Shown here: piece after piece, positions 3,240 through 36,716 of the stretch | Layout: every line of letters begins with the position of its first letter | Position numbering within the stretch: position 1 is the stretch's first letter | Translations under genes and position numbers: made by a program | Assembly (NCBI RefSeq): GCF_030384885.1 | Contig: NZ_CP128613.1 | Reading direction: 5' to 3' (one strand) | Length of the DNA: 64,000 bases | From: Escherichia coli | Lineage (GTDB): Bacteria; Pseudomonadota; Gammaproteobacteria; Enterobacterales; Enterobacteriaceae | Notes under the pieces: model-generated | What the model was told of the DNA's origin: nothing | Databases searched by the model: none | What the model saw: only the letters and a program-made list of their open reading frames with translations

Positions 3240-3871
3240 AACGACGTGACACCATCGTGCGCTACACCGCGCCGGAACGTATCAACCACTGGATCACCGC
3301 CTTCTGCTTCATCCTGGCGGCGGTGAGCGGGCTGGGCTTTTTGTTCCCTTCCTTCAACTGGTTGATGCAAATCATGGGCACACCGCAGCTGGCGCGCATT
3401 CTGCACCCGTTTGTCGGCGTGGTTATGTTTGCCTCGTTCATCATCATGTTTTTCCGTTACTGGCATCACAACCTAATCAATCGGGATGATATCTTTTGGG
3501 CGAAGAATATTCGTAAGATCGTCGTCAACGAGGAAGTAGGTGACACCGGGCGTTATAACTTCGGTCAGAAATGCGTTTTCTGGGCGGCGATTATTTTCCT
3601 GGTCCTGCTGCTGGTGAGCGGTGTGATTATCTGGCGTCCTTATTTTGCGCCTGCTTTCTCAATCCCGGTGATCCGATTCGCGTTAATGCTGCATTCATTT
3701 GCCGCAGTGGCGTTAATTGTGGTTATCATGGTGCATATCTACGCCGCCCTTTGGGTGAAAGGCACGATTACCGCCATGGTGGAAGGATGGGTTACCAGCG
3801 CCTGGGCGAAGAAACATCACCCACGCTGGTACCGTGAGGTCCGCAAGACAACGGAAAAGAAAGCTGAATGA
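3236..3871 (+). CDS. fdoI: Formate dehydrogenase-O cytochrome b556 subunit
   Basis: 211-aa hydrophobic ORF whose start overlaps the fdoH stop (translational coupling); conserved operon position. Confidence 0.93.
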
Positions 3872-4797: not shown

Positions 4798-4979
4798 TCT
4801 CTGACGTTTTCCGGGTGGCGCAGGTCGCCCGGATTACAGTTGATAGGGTATGACGACACCATCTCTCGTATTCCGCGTTACCCATTCAAGACCATGCTGT
4901 TAGTGCCTGTTTGGCCTCATTCTTCCCGCCAACACATCGATAAGGTTATTGGTATGTCACTGATGACAAGCGTAAGATT

Positions 4980-5083
4980 GCCTGATGCGCTGCGCTTATC
5001 AGGCCTACCAATAAACTGCAATATGTTGAATTTGCACGACTTTGTAGGCAGGATAAGGCGTTCACGCCGCATCCGGCATGAAC
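4980..5083. repeat. REP/BIME palindromic units in the fdhE-yiiF convergent intergenic region
   Basis: Sequences gcctgatgcgctgcgcttatcaggcctac and gtaggcaggataaggcgttcacgccgcatccggcatgaac match the enterobacterial REP consensus. Confidence 0.7.
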
Positions 5084-5127: not shown

Positions 5128-5346
5128 TTACCATTCCTCGCGCAGCTTACGCTGGTATTCGACACCATCTTCCTCACATCCTTGCCAGATGCCAAAAGCA
5201 CTGGTTCTTGCTGTTTGCGATTGATTTACCTGGTATTGATCTACCGCTTCCCGTAATAATTCCGCACGAGGAAGATTACACTGCACCTCAAGATCATCAA
5301 GTTGCTTAATCACCTCATTCGATAAATCGAGTAAAATTCTGCCCAT
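5128..5346 (-). CDS. yiiF: Ribbon-helix-helix (CopG-like) small protein YiiF, ~72 aa
   Basis: The 80-aa ORF contains [22 protein letters not shown]...; the internal ATG at 5346 gives the 72-aa form and sits ~7 nt downstream of a GGCAGG Shine-Dalgarno-like stretch. Paralogous to yiiE. Confidence 0.75.
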
Positions 5347-5455
5347 ATCCATACCTGCCAGAGAGTTCATAAATATCTCGCCAATATCATTTTGAATCTA
5401 TGGAGAGAAAAGTACCTTTGTCGAATGCTTAAAGAAAGTGCATTTACGTATCACT

Positions 5456-5499
5456 TTTATTTTTGCGAGGCGTTTTCCAGATATGATGTAACAGTTGCA
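5456..5499 (-). promoter_or_regulatory. Conserved cis-element copy 1 (core ttttgcgaggcgttttccaga), ~110 bp upstream of yiiF
   Basis: The 21-bp core recurs at 5901-5921 and 8021-8041 with 1-2 mismatches. Copies 1 and 2 also share the downstream acagttgca. Function is inferred, not shown. Confidence 0.4.
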
Positions 5500-5586
5500 G
5501 TTATTATAAGTTCAAGTAAAACAACCTTGTATTAATACCAGAATAAGGGCATCTGGTTTTTATATTCAAGAATAAAAAATTTTTTG

Positions 5587-5805
5587 TCATTCCTTATGCT
5601 CCTTACACTGATCATCGACCCCCACTGTCTCCCCCTTTTGCCTGCCTCCCTTTGCTTTACGCACCGGGAATTGCTGACGTTCCAGATATTGCTCTACCGC
5701 TTCGCGTAAAATTGCAGATCGTGAAACCTTACGCCAGCCCCGAAGCTTGTTCAGCCGTTTAATTGCCTCGTCTGATAAATGAAGAAAAACCGTACTCATC
5801 ACCAT
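5587..5805 (-). CDS. yiiE: Ribbon-helix-helix (CopG-like) small protein YiiE, ~72 aa
   Basis: ORF 5587..5835 begins at a TTG; the internal ATG at 5805 is preceded by AAGGTGG (5-nt spacer) and gives MVMSTVFLHLSDEAIKRLNKLRGW... (72 aa). Confidence 0.78.
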   Translation of the reverse strand: MVMSTVFLHLSDEAIKRLNKLRGWRKVSRSAILREAVEQYLERQQFPVRKAKGGRQKGETVGVDDQCKEHKE

Positions 5806-5895
5806 CGCCACCACCTTACATATATCGTTCATCAATGCATGGTGCGAAAATTACGCCGAAAATTTAATTAATAAAAGCTGATTTTTGTATCTTGT

Positions 5896-5939
5896 TTTAT
5901 TTTTGCGAGACGTTTTCCAGAAATAATGCTACAGTTGCA
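5896..5939 (-). promoter_or_regulatory. Conserved cis-element copy 2, ~90-130 bp upstream of yiiE and divergent from the 6054 gene
   Basis: ttttatttttgcgagacgttttccagaaataatgctacagttgca aligns with copy 1 over ~44 bp. Confidence 0.4.
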
Positions 5940-6053
5940 TTCCTTTCAATTATTATTGAAAAACGGTTCAGCTATCGTCAGGGATGATTTACTATTCTTC
6001 ATCAGATGCTGGCGCCCTCACAGGAAAGAAGTGGTAAATAATAAGGATGAGTT

Positions 6054-6593
6054 ATGGATGCCATGAATATGTTTTGCTCAGTAATATTTATTTTCTTTAT
6101 TGGTTTTGCATGGATCTTCGGTTACCTCATCCGCATGATGTACCCGAAAAAAATCAGCGTTTTTACCGCTCCAGGGTTTAGCGGGACCGTTACCCTGCCA
6201 AAAGCAGGAGACTACGCGGTAACTATTACACTCCCACATAATAGCGGCATTGCGTCAAACCTGCCCGGCGCGAGTTTTTATTCAGCGCAATTTAGTATAT
6301 CTACGACTGGTAGGCAGCAAGATATTGCGCTGCAAAGAACAGGGAAGTGGGGAGCTTACTCGTGTAACAAAGATTTCAGTGGCAATAATAGCCATATTAT
6401 TGGCCTGTTTCACTGTCATCAAACTCCGGCAAATTACGACATTATCTGTACTAATCCGGAGGTCATTCACGACACCTATAAAGTGGAGATCATTAACTAT
6501 ATCTCACTTGGAAAACAGATGATGAAAACCATCCCCGGTTGGATCCTTGTTTTTATTGCGATAGGGTTACTTATTATTCCGCAAGTAAGTTAA
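6054..6593 (+). CDS. Hypothetical membrane protein, 179 aa, with N- and C-terminal hydrophobic helices
   Basis: ATG preceded by AAGGATGAG (Shine-Dalgarno); hydrophobic stretches FCSVIFIFFIGFAWIFGYLI and IPGWILVFIAIGLLIIP; AT-rich; followed by a hairpin terminator. No family recognised. Confidence 0.6.
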   Translation: MDAMNMFCSVIFIFFIGFAWIFGYLIRMMYPKKISVFTAPGFSGTVTLPKAGDYAVTITLPHNSGIASNLPGASFYSAQFSISTTGRQQDIALQRTGKWGAYSCNKDFSGNNSHIIGLFHCHQTPANYDIICTNPEVIHDTYKVEIINYISLGKQMMKTIPGWILVFIAIGLLIIPQVS

Positions 6594-6623
6594 TGGCAGA
6601 GATGACTGCACTGCATCCATCGC

Positions 6624-6660
6624 AGACCGGTCAGTGCTGCCACCAACCGGTCTTTAATTT
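6624..6660 (+). terminator. Candidate intrinsic terminator after the 179-aa membrane protein gene
   Basis: Hairpin agaccgg-N16-ccggtct followed by ttaattt. Confidence 0.45.
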
Positions 6661-6939
6661 CTAGTAGTAGTAAATTTGCGGATAACAGTCCGGGAACCAG
6701 ACGATTCCTTGCGGATCATCCCCCTGCATTACCCGATAACATTGGCGTCGATCATCGGCACGACGGCGAAGCGTAGTGTAGAGCCGCTTCCATTCATGAT
6801 CGCCCGGTGTACTGTAGTTTACCCAACAATCCATTGAAGGATGACGCCATTTACCTGTGAGTGTTGGGATCCCTGAATGCTTATGCGGCTTCGCTTTACC
6901 ATTACGATCCCGGTCTTTACGCGTATTAAATGTGGACAT
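6661..6939 (-). CDS. Hypothetical protein, 92 aa
   Basis: ATG at 6939 is preceded on the minus strand by GCAGGAG (strong Shine-Dalgarno); no family recognised from sequence. Confidence 0.5.
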   Translation of the reverse strand: MSTFNTRKDRDRNGKAKPHKHSGIPTLTGKWRHPSMDCWVNYSTPGDHEWKRLYTTLRRRADDRRQCYRVMQGDDPQGIVWFPDCYPQIYYY

Positions 6940-7000
6940 TTTTAGTCTCCTGCTAAGAGTTCTAAAAATGTGCTTCCTTAAAATAGTTCATCATTTTCCC

Positions 7001-7213
7001 TTAATTCGAATAGCGTGCTTTTGCACGAATTTCCGATACGCGGGGACCATTATGATAACGTCGATGTCCACACATCCAACAAGAGCACATACAGGGAGTA
7101 CGAAAGCAAACACCTGATGCTTTTTTGCTTCCATCGCCTGCTGTGCGATAACGACGGCGGATTTTTTTTAATCGCGCCATATGATGGCGACGTTCAGCAC
7201 GATTACGGGTCAT
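7001..7213 (-). CDS. Hypothetical small basic Cys-rich protein, 70 aa (CxxxxCxCxCxxC)
   Basis: ATG at 7213 with a CAGGAG Shine-Dalgarno that lies inside repeat copy A; Arg/Lys-rich N-terminus and a Cys cluster. Could be a spurious GC-rich ORF. Confidence 0.35.
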   Translation of the reverse strand: MTRNRAERRHHMARLKKIRRRYRTAGDGSKKASGVCFRTPCMCSCWMCGHRRYHNGPRVSEIRAKARYSN

Positions 7214-7219
7214 AGCAAT

Positions 7220-7317
7220 ACTCCTGAGCAGGCGGCACTATGCCGCTTTCATAGGAGTTCTGAATGCTGGTGCTTTCTGTATGGCATAACCATGCCTCTA
7301 ACGGTTAAGTGCTTGCA
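7220..7317. repeat. 98-bp direct repeat, copy A
   Basis: About 94% identical to 9037-9134 in the same orientation; contains nested inverted repeats (ctcctg...caggag and gcggca...tgccgc). Overlaps the last codons of the HigA-like gene. Confidence 0.85.
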
Positions 7318-7588
7318 GCACATGTTGCGGATCATTGGCAATCGCTCGCAGCAAAGCCTTTGCAGGCCCGGTCGGTGAACGCCGCCCCTGCTCCCAGTTA
7401 CGCAACGTGTCTACGCTTACGGAAATAAGATCGGCAAATTTAGATTGTGACAACCCTGAAGCACGGCGTATTTCTTTGATTTTCATAGCATCAACTTCAA
7501 AAGTCCGTGAAGGCTGTCGCGTTCCTTCAATAATTTCATTCATCTGGGCCATGCTGTGAGTCAACCGCTCAAAAAGTGCCTTATCCAT
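7298..7588 (-). CDS. HTH (XRE-type) antitoxin, HigA-2-like
   Basis: 96-aa ORF with a helix-turn-helix segment (IKEIRRASGLSQSKFADLISVSVDTLRNWEQGRRSP), immediately downstream of and abutting the toxin-like ORF. Confidence 0.8.
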   Translation of the reverse strand: MDKALFERLTHSMAQMNEIIEGTRQPSRTFEVDAMKIKEIRRASGLSQSKFADLISVSVDTLRNWEQGRRSPTGPAKALLRAIANDPQHVLQALNR

Positions 7589-7900
7589 TTACCACCTCGT
7601 ATTTAACAACCGGAGCATTGCTTTTTCCTGGGGAGACAGATCATCTTTAATACCCTTACGATAAATAAGCAGTAATCTGATCTCATAATGTTTAACCTGA
7701 TGAAAGTAAATAACCCTGACACCAGCACGTTTCCCCTTTTCTCCTGAGACCCATCGAACCTTTCTTAACCCACCAGTTTCAGGTATTACCTCACCGTAGT
7801 CAGGATTCAAGGCCAGGAAAAACTGAAAACGACTGAATTCATCGTCATTCAGCAGTTTTTGAACATCTTCTGGGAAAATTTCCGTTTCGATGAAGAGTAT
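7589..7900 (-). CDS. HigB-2/Gp49-family (RelE-superfamily) toxin-like ORF; no canonical start codon upstream of the conserved N-terminus; possible pseudogene or non-canonical start
   Basis: Called ORF 7589..7810 starts at a TTG. The frame stays open upstream to a stop at 7943-7945 and encodes ...VILFIETEIFPEDVQKLLNDDEFSRFQFFLA..., which resembles this family's N-terminus, but with no ATG/GTG/TTG. The 7900 boundary (an ATA codon) is a guess. Confidence 0.6.
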   Translation of the reverse strand: MLFIETEIFPEDVQKLLNDDEFSRFQFFLALNPDYGEVIPETGGLRKVRWVSGEKGKRAGVRVIYFHQVKHYEIRLLLIYRKGIKDDLSPQEKAMLRLLNTRW

Positions 7901-8015
7901 AACTGTACGCCATTGGCTTAGAGTAACAATCCTTTTTGTACGTCATTGACGTACCCCTGAAACCACTAGCTTACTGATAGTGCTACAGCAAAACCACGTC
8001 TCTGCCGAGTTTGTC

Positions 8016-8041
8016 TTTACATTTGCGAGGCGCTTTCCAGA
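8016..8041 (-). promoter_or_regulatory. Conserved cis-element copy 3 (tttacatttgcgaggcgctttccaga) in the divergent region between the toxin gene and the esterase gene
   Basis: Matches the core of copies 1 and 2 with 2 mismatches over 21 bp; flanks diverge after ccaga. Confidence 0.4.
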
Positions 8042-8086
8042 TTTTCCACGCCCGTGAATTTCCCTGTATCCATCCAGTAAAAACGG

Positions 8087-32439: not shown

Positions 32440-32590
32440 TTGCACCAATATGGTGCTTAATGTTTCCATTGAAGCACTATATTGGTGCAACATTCACATC
32501 ATGGTGCAGCCCTTTTGCACGATGTTAAGCATGATAACGCCTTTTAGGGGCAATTTAAAAGTTGGCACAGTTTTCGCTTTATCTTTTTTA
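32440..32590 (+). promoter_or_regulatory. glnA control region: NtrC enhancer sites and sigma-54 promoter glnAp2
   Basis: tgcaccaatatggtgc (32440-32455), gcactatattggtgca (32473-32488), tggtgcagcccttttgcac (32501-32519), and sigma-54 -24/-12 ttggcacagttttcgct (32561-32577). Confidence 0.75.
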
Positions 32591-35306: not shown

Positions 35307-36716
35307 ATGCAACGAGGGATAGTCTGGGTAGTCGATGACGATAGTTCCATCCGTTGGGTGCTTGAACGTGCGCTCGCTGGAGCGGGTTTAACCTGTACGA
35401 CATTTGAGAACGGCGCGGAAGTACTGGAGGCGCTGGCGAGCAAAACGCCGGATGTGCTGCTTTCAGATATCCGTATGCCGGGAATGGACGGGCTTGCGCT
35501 GCTCAAGCAGATTAAACAGCGCCATCCGATGCTTCCGGTCATCATTATGACCGCACATTCCGATCTGGATGCTGCCGTCAGCGCCTATCAACAAGGGGCG
35601 TTTGATTATCTGCCCAAACCATTTGATATCGACGAAGCCGTGGCGCTGGTTGAGCGCGCCATCAGCCATTATCAGGAACAGCAGCAACCGCGTAATGTTC
35701 AGCTTAACGGCCCGACGACCGATATCATCGGCGAAGCGCCAGCCATGCAGGACGTGTTCCGGATTATCGGTCGGCTTTCACGTTCTTCTATTAGCGTGCT
35801 GATTAACGGCGAATCCGGCACCGGTAAAGAACTGGTCGCTCATGCCCTGCATCGCCACAGTCCTCGAGCCAAAGCGCCGTTTATCGCGCTGAATATGGCG
35901 GCTATCCCGAAGGATTTGATCGAATCAGAACTGTTCGGTCACGAGAAAGGCGCGTTTACCGGCGCGAATACTATTCGTCAGGGGCGTTTTGAACAGGCCG
36001 ATGGCGGCACGTTATTCCTCGATGAAATTGGCGATATGCCGCTCGATGTACAGACGCGTTTGCTGCGCGTGCTGGCAGACGGTCAGTTTTATCGCGTTGG
36101 CGGCTATGCGCCGGTGAAAGTGGATGTGCGGATTATCGCTGCGACCCATCAGAATCTCGAACAGCGGGTACAGGAAGGCAAGTTCCGTGAGGATTTGTTC
36201 CACCGCCTGAACGTTATCCGCGTTCATCTGCCGCCATTGCGCGAGCGTCGGGAAGATATTCCCCGCCTGGCGCGCCATTTCCTGCAGGTTGCCGCGCGCG
36301 AACTGGGCGTAGAAGCGAAGTTGCTGCATCCGGAAACCGAAGCCGCGCTGACGCGTCTGGCGTGGCCGGGTAACGTACGCCAGCTGGAAAACACCTGTCG
36401 CTGGCTAACGGTGATGGCCGCCGGGCAGGAAGTGTTGATTCAGGATTTGCCTGGCGAACTGTTTGAATCAACCGTAGCGGAAAGCCCTTCGCAATTACAG
36501 CCGGACAGTTGGGCAACGCTGTTAGCGCAGTGGGCAGACAGAGCGCTGCGTTCCGGTCATCAAAACCTGCTTTCCGAAGCGCAGCCTGAGCTTGAGCGGA
36601 CGTTACTGACGACCGCGTTGCGACATACGCAGGGGCATAAACAGGAAGCGGCGCGGCTGCTTGGCTGGGGTCGCAACACACTGACACGTAAGTTAAAAGA
36701 GCTGGGGATGGAGTGA
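35307..36716 (+). CDS. glnG: Nitrogen regulation response regulator NtrC (sigma-54 enhancer-binding protein)
   Basis: Start at the internal ATG ([12 protein letters not shown]); receiver domain, AAA+ motifs GESGTGKE and GAFTGA, C-terminal HTH. Confidence 0.95.

Follow-up and report, generated by a model that had tools for sequence, protein, structure and literature searches.

CRP-S sites of Escherichia coli, such as those at the sxy, ppdD, radC and comEA promoters, are a known kind of element (Cameron & Redfield 2006, Sinha et al. 2009, Jaskolska & Gerdes 2015, Sondberg et al. 2019). The motif of Sinha et al. (2009), in the form given in Sondberg et al. 2019 (PMC6728893), is T4G5C6G7A8-N6-T15T16C17C18A19. 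In E. coli it is non-palindromic and has no orientation preference, and Sxy-dependent activation requires both of its unlike half-sites, in a class-I-like geometry (PMC6728893). CRP-S sites share the CRP protein, the 22-bp frame and the 6-bp spacer with canonical CRP-N sites (TGTGA-N6-TCACA), but they carry C6 instead of T6 and their second half-site is very weak; they bind CRP poorly and need Sxy. Here we describe three copies of an element within a 64,000-nucleotide stretch of E. coli DNA (contig NZ_CP128613.1; hereafter, the window), located upstream of yiiF, of yiiE and of a toxin-nadS operon, that are very probably CRP-S sites.

Several systems of this kind have been described. The gene radC belongs to the CRP-S (competence) regulon across gamma-proteobacteria, and quantitative PCR revealed induction of ppdD by Sxy. 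Among toxin-antitoxin (TA) genes, higBA, chpSB and hokD are upregulated by Sxy overexpression in E. coli. Further, the promoter P1 of hicAB carries a CRP-S site (Turnbull & Gerdes 2017, as cited in PMC6957337 and PMC11951105), and toxTA (HI0660/HI0659) of Haemophilus influenzae is a competence-regulated TA operon under CRP-S control (PMC6957337).

Identity of the repeated element

A sequence-only reading of the window had noted near-identical copies of a 21-mer about 90-140 bp upstream of three minus-strand genes, at a number beyond chance. When the window was searched allowing up to three mismatches, three matches were detected, all on the plus strand and with zero, one and two mismatches (Table 1), and 100 dinucleotide-preserving shuffles of the window gave no match. 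The element edge was 91 nt (yiiF), 96 nt (yiiE) and 121 nt (toxin gene) from the annotated starts, and the site centres were 101-131 nt from the start codons. Thus, both observations held. The plus-strand sequence of the element is TT-TGCGA-GGCG(T/C)T-TTCCA-GA. The similarity between copies 1 and 2 extends over 45 nt (5455-5499 and 5895-5939; 89% identity), whereas copy 3 has only the core in common with them, over approximately 22-27 nt.

All three copies matched TGCGA-N6-TTCCA exactly, and there was no other exact match in the window. Each possessed the C at position 6 of the T4G5C6G7A8 half-site and, after a 6-bp spacer, the weak, non-palindromic half-site T15T16C17C18A19. When K-12 promoters were used as positive controls, TTTGCGAGGC was common to the element and the sxy, radC, ppdD and comEA sites, and the element agreed with the sxy and radC sites at 17-20 of 20 positions. 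The four control sites lie 78-141 nt from the start codon, which is comparable to the distances found here. The copies therefore resemble the sites of the Sxy regulon in their half-sites, T-rich left flank, GGC-rich spacer and distance from the start codon; they differ in that they are known by sequence and precede orphan antitoxin, TA and esterase genes instead of DNA-uptake genes. Further, variants with a drifted spacer retained the half-sites, both upstream of a yiiE-like gene (L003; TGCGA-GACTGC-aTCCA) and at yhcG of K-12 (TGCGA-AGAGCT-TTCCt). Drift of the spacer while the half-sites stay is the behavior expected of a bipartite CRP-type site.

We consider it highly probable that all three copies are CRP-S sites of the E. 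coli type, through which CRP and Sxy would induce the adjacent genes. CRP-S sites as such are known; these copies are new, or at least unremarked, members, and six 14-mers of the motif had no literal match in 8 million papers. Each copy would represent a low-affinity, asymmetric cAMP-CRP dimer site in which a strong half-site (TGCGA, with the diagnostic C6) is separated by 6 bp from a weak one (TTCCA). Accumulation of Sxy at high cAMP would lead cAMP-CRP and Sxy to occupy the sites, and the bound CRP/Sxy would bring in RNA polymerase by a class-I-like mechanism. The published direct contact of Sxy with CRP residues Q194 and L196 and the published class-I-like contact between CRP and RNA polymerase are features of the known system. 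Activation would occur solely with the co-activator Sxy (TfoX), and the genes would be silent or basally expressed in ordinary growth and induced together. Accordingly named, yiiF, yiiE and the toxin-nadS operon would be members of the Sxy "competence" regulon, probably together with the divergent esterase gene.

Some observations weigh against this identification. Promoter-like matches in the region were no commoner than in shuffled sequence, and the promoter positions are therefore guesses; this applies to the sigma-70-like match upstream of yiiF (Table 1) and to TATAAA at 8090-8095, a consensus guess that would place copy 3 near -70.5 for the esterase gene. The short intergenic region of hofM, a known Sxy target, did not match the relaxed pattern. 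The conserved spacer GGCGYT exceeds the requirement of the published motif, yet the sxy, ppdD, comEA and radC sites have the same spacer. A literature search, which did not cover the microarray of Sinha 2009 (PMC2725579), found no link between yiiE or yiiF and Sxy. Finally, the pattern used in the scan of genomes described below was derived from the element itself, so that conservation and spacer invariance within the matches are partly ascertainment.

Two other sequences touch on this motif. TGCGAAGGGCTTTCCG at 36478-36493 (minus strand), inside a 489-aa open reading frame (ORF) that is probably glnG, differs from the CRP-S core at one position and resembles the sxy-promoter site; this match is most likely due to chance. 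Upstream of higBA in K-12 (L123 6035-6050), TGGAAGCGCGATTCCA contains two inverted TTCCA-type half-sites and no TGCGA, approximately 150 nt from higB, which is odd for a gene reported to be induced by Sxy.

Table 1. Elements and genes of the locus, with the K-12 sites used for comparison. Gene coordinates are those of the prokaryotic genome annotation pipeline (PGAP).
Feature	Position	Strand	Remarks
Putative CRP-S site, copy 1	5461-5482	+	22-mer TTTTGCGAGGCGTTTTCCAGAT; 21-mer 5461-5481, 0 mismatches; centre 5471.5; upstream of yiiF
Half-sites, copy 1	TGCGA 5464-5468, TTCCA 5475-5479	+	
Putative CRP-S site, copy 2	5901-5922	+	TTTTGCGAGACGTTTTCCAGAA; 21-mer 5901-5921, 1 mismatch; centre 5911.5; upstream of yiiE
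Half-sites, copy 2	TGCGA 5904-5908, TTCCA 5915-5919	+	
Putative CRP-S site, copy 3	8021-8042	+	ATTTGCGAGGCGCTTTCCAGAT; 21-mer 8021-8041, 2 mismatches; centre 8031.5; divergent region between toxin-nadS operon and esterase gene
Half-sites, copy 3	TGCGA 8024-8028, TTCCA 8035-8039	+	
sxy promoter, K-12			TTTGCGAGGCTCTTTCCG; validated site
radC-coaBC intergenic region, K-12			TTTGCGAGGCGCTTTCCAGG
ppdD promoter, K-12			TTTGCGAGGCGTTACGAAGA
comEA/ybaV promoter, K-12			TTTGCGAGGCGGCTTCAGGA
Sigma-70-like match upstream of yiiF	5395-5424	-	TCGACA-18-TAGATT; consensus match alone; would place centre of copy 1 near -83.5
LexA-box-like sequence	8097-8112	+	CTGTACATTCATACAG; just downstream of TATAAA 8090-8095, in esterase promoter region
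Perfect 8-1-8 palindrome	7938-7954		GTACGTCATTGACGTAC; between CRP-S site and toxin start
Remnant of proximal promoter (predicted)	7902-7929	-	TTGTTA (7929-7924), 16-nt spacer, TACAGT (7907-7902)
yiiF	5128-5370	-	ribbon-helix-helix (RHH; CopG-type), orphan VapB-like antitoxin
yiiE	5587-5805	-	RHH (CopG family), paralogue of yiiF
Putative RelE/ParE-superfamily toxin gene	7589-7900	-	annotated "hypothetical"; weak PF06296 match
nadS	7298-7588	-	helix-turn-helix (HTH; XRE/MqsA-like) antitoxin; follows toxin gene
Alpha/beta hydrolase gene	8129-9037	+	LipP1/hormone-sensitive-lipase-like esterase; divergent from copy 3, site edge to ATG 87 nt

Occurrence of the motif in Enterobacterales

When one genome per species (100,044 species) was scanned with the pattern TTTGCGAGNCGYTTTCCAG, 108 loci were detected, 77 in Enterobacterales and 31 in unrelated phyla; by our estimate, approximately 17 chance matches are expected. 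The 77 matches in Enterobacterales were distributed over 16 contexts; the flanks of these were unrelated, the edges of the motif were sharp, and most of the sites were beside TA or defence-type genes. The contexts included the fabY-fdhE hotspot (vapBC, toxin-NadS, parE, esterase), higBA and ccdAB modules 75-100 nt downstream of the site, a symE-like gene followed by rhuM, yhcG, yfhM-PTS and, in a divergent arrangement, a relBE-like operon (64 nt), a higB-like/HTH pair and radC of the radC-coaBC intergenic region in Escherichia and Chimaeribacter (63 nt). The motif was also present upstream of yhcG in E. coli PN43 and upstream of rhuM in an Enterobacter defence island. The orientation independence of CRP-S explains the contexts in which the nearest gene is divergent, such as radC and the relB-like gene. 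In Citrobacter, Enterobacter, Lelliottia, Kosakonia and others the core was intact and the flanks had diverged beyond recognition. Conservation in other genomes, which the sequence-only reading had proposed as a check, was thus found for the core across genera.

Some of the matches had further neighbors in common. Twelve genomes (L016, L032, L040, L047, L053, L055 and L061 among them) shared one context (context 2), in which the LexA-box-like TACTGTGGATTTATCCAG was 15-35 nt from the CRP-S motif and a 150-aa gene, for which no NCBIfam match was found, started approximately 290 nt away; the other side of the site was occupied by higBA, an Hcp island or a LevR-like activator. In Enterobacter and Lelliottia (L013, L021, L041, L054, L060, L070, L005), an annotated SymE-family ORF ran through the motif, its C-terminus ...GKRLAKSNTNHLA was encoded by the site, and differing genes, rhuM among them, were located approximately 85 nt downstream. 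Orphan Hcp/TssD genes with small neighbors of unassigned function were present within 2 kb of motifs in Enterobacter quasihormaechei (L040; site +1438..+1918) and in an unclassified member of Enterobacteriaceae (L102; site +1195..+1747, opposite strand), which is reminiscent of the control of type VI secretion by TfoX in Vibrio.

Alternative explanations of the element

The sequence-only reading had proposed that the element, read on the minus strand, is arranged like the sigma-54 promoter glnAp2 in the same window. The GG-N10-GC spacing was indeed present on the minus strand (cTGGaaaacgccTCGCa) in all copies and in the L003 variant, and the -12 element TCGCA resembles TCGCT of glnAp2. We scored the whole window with a 17-nt position weight matrix (PWM) built from 50 intergenic sigma-54 sites detected by chromatin immunoprecipitation sequencing (ChIP-seq) by Bonocora et al. 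2015. The matrix found glnAp2 at 32562-32578 on the plus strand (TTGGCACAGTTTTCGCT; 14.6 bits), as had been stated, and the top match was CTGGCGCGCATTCTGCA at 3389-3405 inside fdoI (16.9 bits), which corresponds to the intragenic IS47 of Bonocora et al. 2015. In contrast, the element scored 3.1-5.3 bits, whereas no training site scored less than 7.9 (median 15.8). It ranked 182-415 among the 17-mers of the window, with 180-415 others scoring at least as high; the score of the L003 variant was -1.6 bits. The chief penalties fell on the A after GG, a position occupied by C or T in real sites (-4.7 bits), and on the C in the -12 TTGC. Thus, the element shares the spacing and the TCGC -12 element with glnAp2, but it has TGGAAA where glnAp2 has TGGCAC. 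K-12 possesses two perfect copies of the element; nothing at yiiE or yiiF was listed in the sigma-54 ChIP-seq tables and supplements for K-12, although the fdoI site approximately 2 kb away was, and there was none among the RpoN peaks of genomic SELEX. The spacing was correctly observed, and the promoter was refuted: transcription of yiiF, yiiE and the toxin operon from sigma-54 (-24/-12) promoters is extremely improbable. Hexamers of sigma-70, -32, -E and -28 over the core were also considered and rejected, as no -10 box was consistent across the copies. A tempting but wrong sigma-54 annotation thus gives way to a specific and testable CRP-S one.

A shared operator of the RHH proteins YiiE and YiiF, serving auto- and cross-regulation, had also been suggested. 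The two proteins are paralogues, as had been claimed (38% identity, E=8e-11), two of the copies precede RHH genes, RHH antitoxins usually autoregulate, and operators of the Arc type are approximately 21 bp long and weakly symmetric. However, the motif also occurs without an adjacent RHH gene at sxy, radC-coaBC, ppdD, comEA and yfhM-PTS and before HTH-antitoxin, CcdAB, rhuM and yhcG genes, and most of the 16 contexts lack an RHH gene. Further, inspection revealed no repeated or inverted subsites, and the site is at least 100 nt from the start codons and not over the core promoter. We regard this explanation as very unlikely. A functionless relic of a duplicated promoter region would account for the extended likeness of copies 1 and 2, which lie in their 45 nt of common sequence before paralogous genes. 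It is similarly hard to believe, because copy 3 retains the core alone, the core is intact across genera in which the flanks have diverged, and functional sites elsewhere in the genome have the same sequence. Of the idea of module duplication in the sequence-only reading, the flanks of copies 1 and 2 are thus explained and the maintenance of the core is not. Likewise, its idea of shared control stands insofar as the three units have a common cis-regulatory element; none of its three mechanisms fits best.

An att-like or junction sequence for recombinational exchange of cassettes, acting instead of or besides regulation, was weighed as well. The copies are direct repeats that bracket variable DNA in the fabY-fdhE hotspot, with one copy in Citrobacter and two or three in E. 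coli, and some breakpoints coincide with the site edges: in UM146 the homology to the window starts at base 5461, and in K-12-like strains the yhcG homology ends 2 nt past the site. Identity over 20-27 bp is near the minimum length for RecA-mediated recombination. However, the empty nanQ|gltD site has no copy of the motif. This indicates that the element moves together with the gene instead of marking the target, and a target-site (attB) model was rejected. The radC, sxy, ppdD and comEA copies lie in stable core loci, and no recombinase was annotated at the loci inspected, although no systematic search was made. In UM146, which lacks yiiF, the junction (window 4862-4893 and L116 3460-3521) is in a short similarity of tctcgtattccgcg (about 4864-4878) to the left edge of copy 1, and TGCGA is changed to CGCGA; it looks like a microhomology deletion ending exactly at the site. 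To our knowledge, the motif is unlike dif, attC, hix or known transposon ends. We consider a recombinational function improbable, and at most secondary.

Other candidates were rejected. A small ORF or an RNA hairpin across the element does not agree with flanks that differ in every context, and no Rfam family covered the element, the sole matches being models of small RNAs associated with repetitive extragenic palindromes (REP) at 4944-5083. Among the consensus sequences of other binding sites, neither the marbox (MarA/SoxS/Rob), the Ada box, PurR, Cra and other LacI-family operators nor boxA, ops, dif, attC/attI, hix/gix half-sites and transposon ends fit the element over its full length.

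The locus and the Sxy regulon

The window, which matches E. coli 2013C-4282 (NZ_CP027579) at 100% identity, includes the variable region between fdhE and fabY (yiiD). In E. coli 06-00048, Citrobacter and Enterobacter, vapC directly follows the yiiF homologues (L004 4636-5252; L007 1792-2408), and yiiF of the K-12 type is therefore an orphan VapB-type antitoxin. In the window, the place of vapC is taken by a cluster of REP/bacterial interspersed mosaic elements (4944-5083; Rfam ES036/naRNA4 matches). The order in Citrobacter freundii is fdhE, vapC-vapB (yiiF-like), one element, the divergent alpha/beta hydrolase gene and fabY, and the left flank of this element aligns with that of copy 1 and its right flank with that of copy 3. 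The pair of yiiE and copy 2 represents an old duplicate of yiiF and copy 1. A 98-nt direct repeat (7220-7317 and 9037-9134, 94% identical) contains the 3' end of nadS and a hairpin; its second copy, a nadS remnant after the esterase gene, is cut off by a low-GC island with a 637-aa ORF (9206-11119) annotated as a transposase/pseudogene.

The sequence-only reading had assigned copy 3 to the toxin operon. The centre of copy 3 is 97.5 nt from the ATG of the esterase gene (8129), and one orthologous site in the vapB-esterase intergenic region of Citrobacter and Enterobacter corresponds to copy 3. In Citrobacter, Enterobacter and Lelliottia, the site is 86-90 nt from the esterase ATG, whatever is on the other side, and it is 87 nt from it here. 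Since this spacing is conserved, copy 3 is no less likely to act on the esterase gene than on the toxin operon, and both may be its targets. The shared element thus holds for this operon; its assignment is uncertain. The LexA-box-like sequence in the esterase promoter region has the form CTGT-N8-ACAG and is kept as CTGTATATCCATACAG in Citrobacter (L007 about 2583-2598), which suggests that the accessory esterase may be under SOS control beside a CRP-S site, as at sulA-sxy in K-12.

The toxin-nadS operon would also possess a proximal promoter of its own, which the antitoxin presumably represses, and the palindrome between the CRP-S site and the toxin start (Table 1) is likely the NadS operator. 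In three other strains (L003 7364, L116 5480, L118 5846) the toxin gene starts with ATG, TATAAT ends one base before it and TTGTTA lies 16 nt upstream; in the present strain these are ATA and TACAGT. Mutation of both the start codon and the proximal promoter has probably silenced the toxin in this strain. The operon resembles hicAB of E. coli, a TA operon in which the toxin gene comes first and which has a distal promoter (P1) dependent on CRP-S and a proximal promoter (P2) beside the toxin start: it has a putative CRP-S site, a palindrome and, in the other strains, TTGTTA-16-TATAAT abutting the ATG. In contrast to hicAB, its proteins belong to unrelated families, and its proximal promoter is predicted, with mutated -10 box and toxin start. 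As in toxTA, the gene for a toxin of the RelE/ParE superfamily (putative in the window) precedes that for an HTH-XRE antitoxin, and a CRP-S site would control both; in contrast, Haemophilus CRP-S sites are palindromic (TGCGA-N6-TCGCA), and the toxin of the window matches PF06296 weakly.

The association of the motif with TA genes fits and extends the published control of higBA, chpSB, hicAB and toxTA by Sxy, as the motif flanks vapBC, relBE-like, higBA-like, ccdAB, parE and toxin-NadS modules. It is conceivable, though we think it rather unlikely, that the strict CRP-S motif of Enterobacteriaceae is chiefly a mark of mobile TA and defence-type cassettes (vapBC, parE, relBE, higBA, ccdAB, toxin-NadS, symE-like, rhuM, yhcG/PDDEXK and orphan Hcp islands), that the Sxy "competence" state is largely a programme by which such addiction and defence modules are armed on uptake of foreign DNA, and that the sites of approximately 22 bp would also provide short homologies for the duplication, deletion and swapping of cassettes in hotspots such as fabY-fdhE.

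Identification of the copies as CRP-S sites predicts that yiiE and yiiF of K-12 would respond to Sxy and cAMP-CRP, as would the toxin-NadS module and the SOS-box-bearing esterase gene in other strains. Further, the CRP-S consensus of E. coli extends into the spacer (TTTGCGAGGCGYTTTCCAG), and this could aid in working out how Sxy recognizes its sites. The link between the competence regulon and TA genes would thereby be extended to several more TA families and genera.

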